Source: Eledone cirrhosa (lineage: Eukaryota). Taken from it: a stretch of DNA of 64,000 nt. A model generated the notes under the pieces. That model saw only the letters and a program-made list of their open reading frames with translations. It was not told where the DNA came from and did not search any database. This document shows positions 3,505 to 13,472 of this stretch, one piece after another (within the stretch, counting starts at the first letter, position 1; each line of letters opens with the position of its first letter). Both the position numbers and the translations under genes were made by a program. The stretch lies in NCBI GenBank assembly GCA_964016885.1, contig OZ024743.1, positions 2,666,001-2,730,000 on the forward strand. Reading direction: 5' to 3'.

Positions 3505-3954
3505 GTATATATATATATGTATATATATATATATGTATATATATATGTATATATATATATGTATATATATATATGTATATATATATATGTATATATATAT
3601 ATGTATATATATATATGTATATATATATATGTATATATATATATGTATATATATATATGTATATACACGTACATACATATATGTATACAGACGTACAGTA
3701 GTAGGTATATATATATATGTACGTATGGATTCACCGAACATTTATTATAATGCTCGGTGTGTTTGTAAACAAACATCCCTTATTAAGCTGTAATGTCCAG
3801 CAAGTAACAGCCGTACTAAGAGTGGGAAATGAAATTTTGTTTCATTTTTTCCGTTTATATATATATATATATATATATAAGTATGTATATATATGTATAT
3901 ATATATGTATATGTATATATATATGTATATGTATATATATATATGTATGTATAT

Positions 3955-10620: not shown

Positions 10621-11170
10621 TGTGAGTGAGTATGTGTGTTTTTTTGGTGGTTTTTTTTAGGTGTGGCTTTTTTTGTTTTTCTGTTTTTTTGGTTTTTTTG
10701 GGGTTTCTTTGTTTTTTTGTGAATGTGTCTGTTGATTTGGCATATTGTTGATTAGTTTAAGAGAAGTTCGAAGATAATAGTAAGATATGCACTCAGTATT
10801 TTGAATCTGTCTGCAGAATTCCCTAGACCTTTGTCACTTAGCAGAACTTAATGACTTTAGCTTTTAAAGAATCTCCCTTTTCTTTAATTCTATCGAGCAT
10901 GAATGACCCCCCACTGATTTTATAGACATCTGCTAGCTTAAGAGAAACTTATTGACAAGGAATGGTATGCCATCCGGAACTTGTTTATAGATTTCTGTCT
11001 GCCTTTGTTACTCTAAAAACATAAATAAATATAAATTAACTATAGCTATGTAGAATTAGCCTTTAATGAATTCCCTTCTCTATCAACCAATGACCTGCAC
11101 CCATCCCACTCCCCACCCTCTCCTACCACTTGTAGAGACCTATAAATACCATATTTATTTTTTGATACCC

Positions 11171-11221
11171 AGATTCCTGATGATTTCTAATGAATGAAAC
11201 AGTTCTAGTCCTGTAGAATCT
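11171..11221 (+). ncRNA. Type I hammerhead ribozyme, copy 1
   Basis: AGATTC CTGATGA t ttc taat gaa t GAA ACAG ttctagtc CTGT A GAATCT. Stem I is 6 bp and perfect, the core CUGAUGA/GAAA is intact, stem III is ACAG/CTGT, and the triplet is GUA (predicted cut after 11215). Confidence 0.85.
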
Positions 11222-11304
11222 CATCTATATTAAAACTATTATACTCTGCTATGTATTGAGTACCTTACTTACTGTGGTTACCTCCGATTCAACCCGGAAT
11301 AACG

Positions 11305-11336
<32 letters not shown>

Positions 11337-11401: not shown

Positions 11402-11474
11402 ATATTGTTATACTTTGGGAGGGTCATGTTGCCAATAAGATTGGCAACATGACCCTCCCAAAGTATAACAATAT
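11402..11474. repeat. Perfect hairpin (35-bp arms, 3-nt loop) made of PLE pLTR sequence
   Basis: ATATTGTTATACTTTGGGAGGGTCATGTTGCCAAT aag ATTGGCAACATGACCCTCCCAAAGTATAACAATAT. Confidence 0.9.
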
Positions 11475-11782
11475 ATATATATATATATACATAAATATAT
11501 ATATATATATATACATAAATATATATATATATAAAAAAAGAGCTTAAGAGAAACTTAATGACAAGGAATGGTATGCCATCCGGAACCTGTTTATAGAATT
11601 CTGTCTGCCCTTGTTACTCTAAAAACATAAATAAATAAAAATAAAAATAAACTATAGCTTTGTAGAATTAGCTTTTAATGAATTCCCTTTTCTATCAACC
11701 AATGACCTACACCCATCCCACTCCCCACCCTCTCCTACCACTTGTAGAGACCTATAAATACCATTTTTATTTTTTGATACCC

Positions 11783-11833
11783 AGATTCCTGATGATTTCT
11801 AATGAATGAAACAGTTCTAGTCCTGTAGAATCT
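11783..11833 (+). ncRNA. Type I hammerhead ribozyme, copy 2
   Basis: Identical to 11171-11221 and located 612 nt downstream. Confidence 0.85.
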
Positions 11834-11938
11834 CATCTATATTAAAACTATATATATATATATTAGGGTAAACATTGATGCAATTCAATTCAAGCACTCA
11901 TCGTACTTTTTCCACATAGGAGTGACGGAGTAAATATC

Positions 11939-12039
11939 GAATAAGGAAAAGCGAAGTAGTTTCAGATGTTCAAATCCTTTAATAATAAATTATTATTAAA
12001 GGATTTGAACATCTGAAACTACTTCGCTTTTCCTTATTC
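11939..12039. repeat. Perfect hairpin (49-bp arms, 3-nt loop)
   Basis: GAATAAGGAAAAGCGAAGTAGTTTCAGATG...AATAATA aat TATTATT...CATCTGAAACTACTTCGCTTTTCCTTATTC. Confidence 0.92.
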
Positions 12040-13219: not shown

Positions 13220-13250
<31 letters not shown>

Positions 13251-13328
13251 ACGAAGGAAATGTGGTAAGGAACCAGGTGGACCATAACGCACCAAAGTAC
13301 TCAATACTTGTGGTAGTAGAGTGGGTAT

Positions 13329-13440
13329 TAGGAACCAGTAAGACCCCGACAGCTGAGCTCAAGCCGTTTCGACGGCTAATTCTAATTAGAATTAGCCGTC
13401 GAAACGGCTTGAGCTCAGCTGTCGGGGTCTTACTGGTTCC

Positions 13441-13442
<2 letters not shown>
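13329..13442. repeat. Perfect 114-bp palindrome containing the 3' half of a hammerhead
   Basis: 57-bp arms with no loop (centre TCTAA|TTAGA). Each arm carries C GAAAC GGC ttgagctca GCT GTC. Confidence 0.92.

Positions 13443-13472
<30 letters not shown>

Follow-up and report, generated by a model that had tools for sequence, protein, structure and literature searches.

A head-to-head pLTR stub of a Penelope-like element with motifs of the Hydra clade in Eledone cirrhosa, and junction statistics that argue for twin priming with run-off

Inverted pLTRs, palindromes at their junctions and tails on one end only had already been described for EN+ Penelope-like elements (PLEs) (PMC8557442; PMC3846280). 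The published explanations were self-priming (PMC3846280) and resolution by the endonuclease (PMC8557442), and the origin of the tandem and inverted structures was named as an open question (PMC8557442). Rotifer elements had an Initiator-like motif in the pLTR (PMC3846280). In vitro, the protein of the anole element Poseidon PAc cut and extended both target strands from two internal sites that bounded the tail, with uncleaved RNA as the template; the two strands did not differ there in their start sites (PMC11167929). At the snap-back junctions of R2 insertions, the 3' end of the cDNA primed an inverted segment (PMC11204384). With respect to the ribozymes of these elements, a hammerhead core with U3-A8 was found in Schistosoma PLEs (PMC4209133); this pair is known to function as a covariant replacement for C3-G8 (PMC3088659).

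The locus that we compared with these systems was located in a 64,000-nt stretch of the Eledone cirrhosa genome (contig OZ024743.1, positions 2,666,001 to 2,730,000), referred to here as the window. A sequence-only reading of this DNA had reported a loopless 114-bp palindrome, and we found it at 13329-13442, perfect, with 57-bp arms; the longest palindrome arm in 30 shuffles of the non-microsatellite window DNA was 11 bp. Each arm held 53 nt of the element, and the rest was a 4-nt filler at the centre and 2 bp of TA on each side. The whole insert measured 190 bp, stood between two (TA)n target tracts (13228-13250 and 13441-13467) and was a stub with two head-to-head copies of the front end of a Penelope-like retroelement that has Hydra-clade motifs. 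Its long arm (13251-13383, minus strand) consisted of 133 nt of the pLTR front end, up to a distal ("long") start site beside the target, while the short arm (13388-13440, plus strand) comprised 53 nt and ended at a proximal ("short") start site, likewise beside the target. In comparison to the natural parent copy L147, the long arm was identical at 131 of 133 nt (mismatches at 13311 and 13328) and the short arm at 53 of 53. The filler AATT (13384-13387) was absent from the parent, and the match of both arms to the parent stopped 5 nt short of the stem II 3' strand, on its upstream side. It was likely that this filler was copied from the neighbouring arm during joining. Similar locally copied fillers were present at the junctions of L077, L091, L098 and L227, the last with a filler from the nearby arm copied three times over, and they resembled the products of end joining with repeated re-priming. 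Taken by itself, the window copy, with its 4-nt self-complementary centre, fitted either fold-back or joining.

The right arm carried the 3' half of a type I hammerhead (13393-13428, plus strand): the 3' strand of stem II, GAAA (13401-13404), stem III with a palindromic loop (13406-13420), GUC (13421-13423) and the 3' strand of stem I (13424-13428). The order of GAAA, a stem III with a self-complementary loop and GUC after the hairpin was thus as previously noticed (13401-13423). A G-run was also present on the right arm, and the half was mirrored on the minus strand at 13343-13378. Since the 5' half of the core was missing from both arms, the half-hammerhead of the window was unable to fold as a cis ribozyme.

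On the left, the arm continued for 80 nt (13251-13330, minus strand), in agreement with the earlier estimate. This one-sided tail spanned the gap between the two inferred reverse-transcription start sites, and the parents extended beyond it into a 5' UTR and an ORF. A motif that the left arm had been said to share with the region downstream of a hammerhead at 11171 proved to be an 11-mer, at 13297-13307 (minus) and 11253-11263 (plus); a shuffle was expected to give 0.05 occurrences, and two were reached in one of 500 shuffles. This tail motif was common to other hammerhead-bearing families, a 10-mer of it being present in other families among the loci compared. At least three families (window 13297-13307; L060, L150, L185) had the motif together with an upstream ACTC able to pair with it. 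The motif is likely part of a hairpin, situated between the start sites, that is a candidate for protein binding.

Two other palindromes were observed beside TA runs in the window, at 11402-11474 (35-bp arms, 3-nt loop) and 11939-12039 (50-bp arms, 1-nt loop), and they were likely stubs of other families. Additionally, the window contained two copies of another family, at 10935-11305 and 11541-11849, about 612 nt apart and with a canonical CUGAUGA hammerhead; the first ended long (11305) and the second short (about 11849). Mirror stubs of families related to this one were seen at L029 and L235, with the centre at or just upstream of the core.

Parent copies were found for three subfamilies, namely A (that of the window copy), B and C. 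All of them had, in order, a C-run, UUGANAA, stem II with a loop of 37-39 nt, and then the half seen in the window. The central hairpin of the window had been taken for stem II, but the parental partner strand lay 37 nt (A and B) or 39 nt (C) upstream, and the apparent stem II was merely the mirror arm. The mirror copy did occupy the place of a missing core strand, as proposed, but this strand was UUGANAA and not CUGAUGA. None of the 116 core sightings, which came from overlapping loci, had CUGANGA: 67 were UUGAGAA, 43 UUGAUAA and two UUGAAAA, and four others were misparsed. The core of L200 was UUGACAA. Accordingly, N7 was G, U, A or C, and the other six core positions were invariant. An exact genome search for CUGAUGA beside the hairpin returned three matches, all palindromes that created the word at the junction, and they were rejected as parents, being junction products.

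The parent possessed a 3-8 pair, a free N7, GAAA and NUH, as in a type I hammerhead core. For subfamily A, the fold of lowest energy had the three helices around the core; when the core was kept unpaired, this fold was within 1.6 kcal/mol of the minimum for B and within 0.1 and 0.3 kcal/mol for two copies of C. The parent fold was no more stable than that of shuffles (z of 0.24 and -1.32), and a scan against Rfam gave no hammerhead among the 150 of 221 matches listed, only noise of the miRNA-hairpin type. Judged from its sequence, the parent is a predicted type I hammerhead with a U3-A8 core. It had in common with the Schistosoma PLE hammerheads the U3-A8 covariation, a palindromic loop 3, G10.1-C11.1 and a long bulged helix II (PMC4209133; PMC3088659), but its helix III was 4-5 bp and its helix II loop of 37-39 nt likely held the transcription start. 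A U3-A8 core combined with a long stem II loop escapes CUGANGA descriptors that use short spacers. At about 1407 (oriented) in L135, an ORF-leading copy started exactly at the predicted ribozyme cut, a single anecdotal case.

The ORF of the parents was 717 aa in L145 and L151, 719 aa in L147 and broken in L149. It contained reverse transcriptase (RT) and C-terminal GIY-YIG motifs, with YRDD and VIY..YIG read by eye. Since the ORF protein returned no Pfam family at E 0.01 and no match in a PDB sequence search, the assignment to EN+ PLEs rested on these motifs. The organization was also that of EN+ PLEs, with tandem and inverted pLTRs and an optional tail: tandems had a period of 3531-3546, and inverted ends and the 80-nt tail were present as well. 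The endonuclease region was 100% identical at the protein level in 150 of 150 scored matches, and therefore the family was young. Moreover, the ORF had, by eye, the motifs of the Hydra clade of C-terminal EN+ PLEs (DKT; RWK as RWR; a CxCx5C linker, CxxC and CxH; no CCHH), and insertion was into (TA)n, as in that clade (PMC8557442). In contrast to the Hydra clade, the unit was about 3.5 kb rather than <3 kb, and the hammerhead was non-canonical, with UUGANAA and a long stem II loop; a canonical pLTR hammerhead was an observation on the Hydra-clade families described (PMC8557442). By motifs and target, the element can be called a putative "Hydra-like" PLE. The Neptune clade was our first candidate and was dropped on the linker motif.

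The 3-Gb, TA-rich genome contained at least 13,928 head-to-head junctions of this one repeat family (exact pattern, two arms, spacer of at most 30 nt), and a reversed control gave none. A search with the 191-nt unit yielded 1,340 candidates, and 36 of the 40 scored matched over nearly the entire length at 95-100%. Among the 30 closest relatives of the long arm of the window there were 15 mirror stubs, six parents and nine single stubs or short remnants. The inserts resembled those of other EN+ PLEs in their head-to-head pLTRs, junction palindrome, tail on one end only and Initiator-like motif in the pLTR, and differed in the length of the tail (80 nt versus 30-40) and in the approximately 14,000 ORF-less stubs (PMC8557442; PMC3846280).

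Some loci had other arrangements. Long arms with a mirror piece of just 7-8 nt, adjoining (TA)n, were seen at L217, L231 and L232; in the last two, which were probably one duplicated locus, the tiny piece extended beyond the long arm. These pieces may point to a minor third start site at a different TA. A seven-unit tandem (L118-L124) had 299-nt units in which the core was complete and the stem II loop lacked 21 nt, the deletion ending at the inferred start A; by its sequence this tandem would be retrozyme-like. The window copy, an inverted pair that lacks a core, did not have the tandem units with a complete hammerhead in each that define a non-LTR retrozyme, and the available portions of a retrozyme preprint (10.64898/2026.07.22.740005) and of two papers (PMC13000458; PMC13282606) held nothing specific for such stubs. 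At L146 (260-3830, oriented), the inversion junction contained a 55-nt piece of the ORF in about 65 exact tandem copies, which suggests repeated template jumping.

The outer ends of the copies were fixed at two positions, 17 and 97 nt past the predicted ribozyme cut and 80 nt apart, each at a TA that continued into the target. Of 50 junctions taken by position, all within the first 22 Mb of one contig, 49 were long+short, with the tail on exactly one arm, and one (L099) was long+long (P of about 1e-13 versus free choice); six of the 49 could also be read as a 4-nt overlap where the subfamily parent permitted it. Further mirror junctions, picked for a long arm, had a short arm on the other side in 41 of 41 cases. 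Both ends were visible in three kilobase arrays, all long+short, while two more of the five gave no mirror end. The same two sites terminated single-ended copies: among 30 endonuclease-bearing loci, 14 ended long (two of them flagged apart for small indels) and 12 short, one was a tandem, and three had no pLTR in the flank. Because both start sites were downstream of the ribozyme cut, the templates must have been uncut RNA. Poseidon PAc from Anolis likewise used uncleaved RNA and an AT-rich target, and its two internal start sites bounded the tail with both strands extended; it belongs to another clade, and no coupling of strand to site was reported for it (PMC11167929). Since the anole strands showed no start-site difference there, the long+short coupling was without biochemical precedent.

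The inner ends were also concentrated. In 50 of 75 junctions, the end of the furthest-reaching arm was 9-11 nt upstream of the stem II 3' strand, and one of 75 had it beyond 14 nt, so that the ends piled up at one A inside the stem II loop; both arms reached this stop in 14 of 75. Position 10 was the A of TCAGTC (B) or TTAGTC (A and C), which we take to resemble the arthropod Initiator. A TATA-like word was found about 30 nt upstream of the A, although it was non-consensus, overlapped stem II and differed in subfamily C. A copied cap is seen as an extra base, G, at the end of a cDNA. The base preceding the A, where the other arm gave no template, was G in six of 10 arms (P = 0.02 versus 0.25), and no parent had G immediately before the A. 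We infer from these 10 arms that the extra G was probably a copied cap. The same inner boundary recurred in tandem units (L007, L118-L124), in the ORF-leading L129 and in single stubs such as L239. Furthermore, contig depth in public runs rose about 10-fold across L145:3439-3474, where the A is 3450; these runs were from one study, may represent the source sample, and their depth was no measure of copy number. No RNA run was among those listed as containing the sequence, which counts neither way. The motif likeness and the pile-up of ends point to transcription starting at the Initiator-like A within the stem II loop, and the hammerhead was likely split by the element's own promoter.

Our main reading, to which we assign a probability of roughly 0.7, is that the palindrome arose when the front end of an RNA was copied twice, both target strands priming at two fixed sites, with run-off and joining. 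Transcription would start at the A in the 37-nt loop of stem II, and the transcript would begin with a non-cutting half ribozyme. The endonuclease would cut (TA)n, and each 3' end would pair with UA in the RNA, one priming 58 nt from the RNA start, at the short site, and the other 138 nt from it, at the long site. Each cDNA would extend to the RNA 5' end and run off, in some cases with an extra base copied from the cap, after which the two 3' ends would be trimmed by a few bases and joined, either through microhomology of 0-4 nt or by short fillers copied from nearby sequence. If priming used these two start sites in the downstream pLTR, the kilobase inverted and tandem insertions would result. 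Both target strands prime in L1 twin priming as well, which produces inversion without duplication; in our model the same 53 nt appear twice and both start sites are fixed.

Could one cDNA have been sufficient? In this alternative, which we regard as unlikely, there is a single long cDNA, which extends to the RNA 5' end, runs off, folds back with a small loop and serves as its own template; the resulting hairpin is resolved by the endonuclease at the short-site TA. It explains the long+short structure and the identity of the arms at no cost, accommodates the 4-nt self-complementary centre of the window, and has precedents in the snap-back priming on cDNA documented for R2 insertions (PMC11204384) and in Craig et al., who attributed the tail to endonuclease resolution (PMC8557442); the R2 junctions differ from ours, where 53 nt are duplicated and the start sites are fixed. 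Under fold-back, the folding cDNA must be the long one, and therefore extra 5' bases are possible on the long arm only. Over 90 junctions, the long arm did reach further in 35, but the short arm did so in 39 (by at least 3 nt in 19 of 75), and the two were equal in 16 (L101 and L106 were scored against a mismatched parent and counted as equal). One folding cDNA would thus be insufficient. Moreover, both arms ended at the inner stop in the 14 of 75 junctions mentioned above, and 26 of 50 had only 0-2 unpaired nt at the centre. If spacers were inverted after insertion, this could imitate short-arm loops and blur the orientation, which would weaken the case for two cDNAs, but the splits among young subfamily A copies (eight long, six short and one equal; six, six and three in a further group) would demand an inversion far faster than point mutation. 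The second set of junctions was scored without L197, L200 and L209, of which two were parents and one a deleted mirror, and L184, the same as L078, was left out too. L099, whose two long arms differed at several sites, needs two cDNAs, and likely two different RNAs were used there. Elsewhere the arms agreed at five subfamily columns in 39 of 49 junctions (8.8 upon shuffling, with a maximum of 20 in 10,000; L067 was left out for an insertion in one arm) and disagreed at one or more columns in the other 10. This agreement fits a single RNA, but sources active in one era, or gene conversion from one arm to the other, would give it too.

A comparably improbable variant keeps two cDNAs and explains the inner stop by stalling at a structure in the stem II loop, or by a processed RNA end, rather than by a transcription start. 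In the predicted fold, the stop did fall within the apical portion of the stem II extension, and a few arms extended past it (L080, L199 and L235, to 13-14 nt; L223, L194). However, many cDNAs of longer inserts passed the site (L037, L050, L057, L058), the predicted apical structure varied among subfamilies while the stop did not, and the extra G in six of 10 arms was against a stall. Self-priming on an antisense template, put forward for the junction palindromes of rotifer Penelope elements in a paper that also noted bidirectional promoter motifs (PMC3846280), would account poorly for outer ends that are both fixed sense-RNA start sites next to (TA)n, for single-ended copies that use the same two sites, and for a stop at an Initiator-like A, which it does not predict; our junction statistics favour two cDNAs instead, and we consider this proposal very improbable here. 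Still less credible is the mechanism of the sequence-only reading, in which cDNA of the element 3' end folded onto itself at hammerhead stem II, thereby priming the second strand. That reading was right that the insert was a PLE pLTR piece with a half hammerhead, that parents existed and that the locus recorded inverted-pLTR formation; the predicted parental hammerhead was real, and the mirror centre was 5-10 nt from the stem II 3' strand. Nevertheless, such a fold-back would retain the 37-nt loop once, whereas the window spacer was 14 nt and, among mirror junctions gathered with no limit on the spacer, none of 41 had that form. Finally, we give almost no credence to a palindromic master amplified as a unit or to an assembly artefact. 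The exact centre of the window copy recurred in L002 and L012. One 53-nt public contig spanned it with one difference, but with <31 nt on each side it was too short to count as bridging. On the other hand, junction centres at unrelated loci differed among copies and across subfamilies, the flanks of the window copy matched none of six near-identical copies, the arms of older copies differed by point changes, and the loci numbered thousands on many contigs. Varied centres and unmatched flanks therefore ruled out both.

We found no paper with a two-primer, run-off model of PLE inversion in a literature search that lacked most subscription journals. The palindrome of the window was real, ordinary in kind and useful in number, with the statistics of its family arguing for twin priming with run-off, and no host function was implied for the window copy. 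With about 14,000 junctions of one young family and an intact enzyme in many identical copies, a direct test of the two-primer model is feasible. A broader and more tentative possibility is that a dimeric PLE enzyme acts on one capped RNA with its own fixed start site for each strand, that the promoter lies inside the hammerhead loop so that every transcript starts as a non-cutting half-ribozyme, and that copying of the front end is the main outcome of insertion. If this were true, the inverted pLTRs and one-sided tails would follow, class-wide, from the geometry of one enzyme on one RNA.
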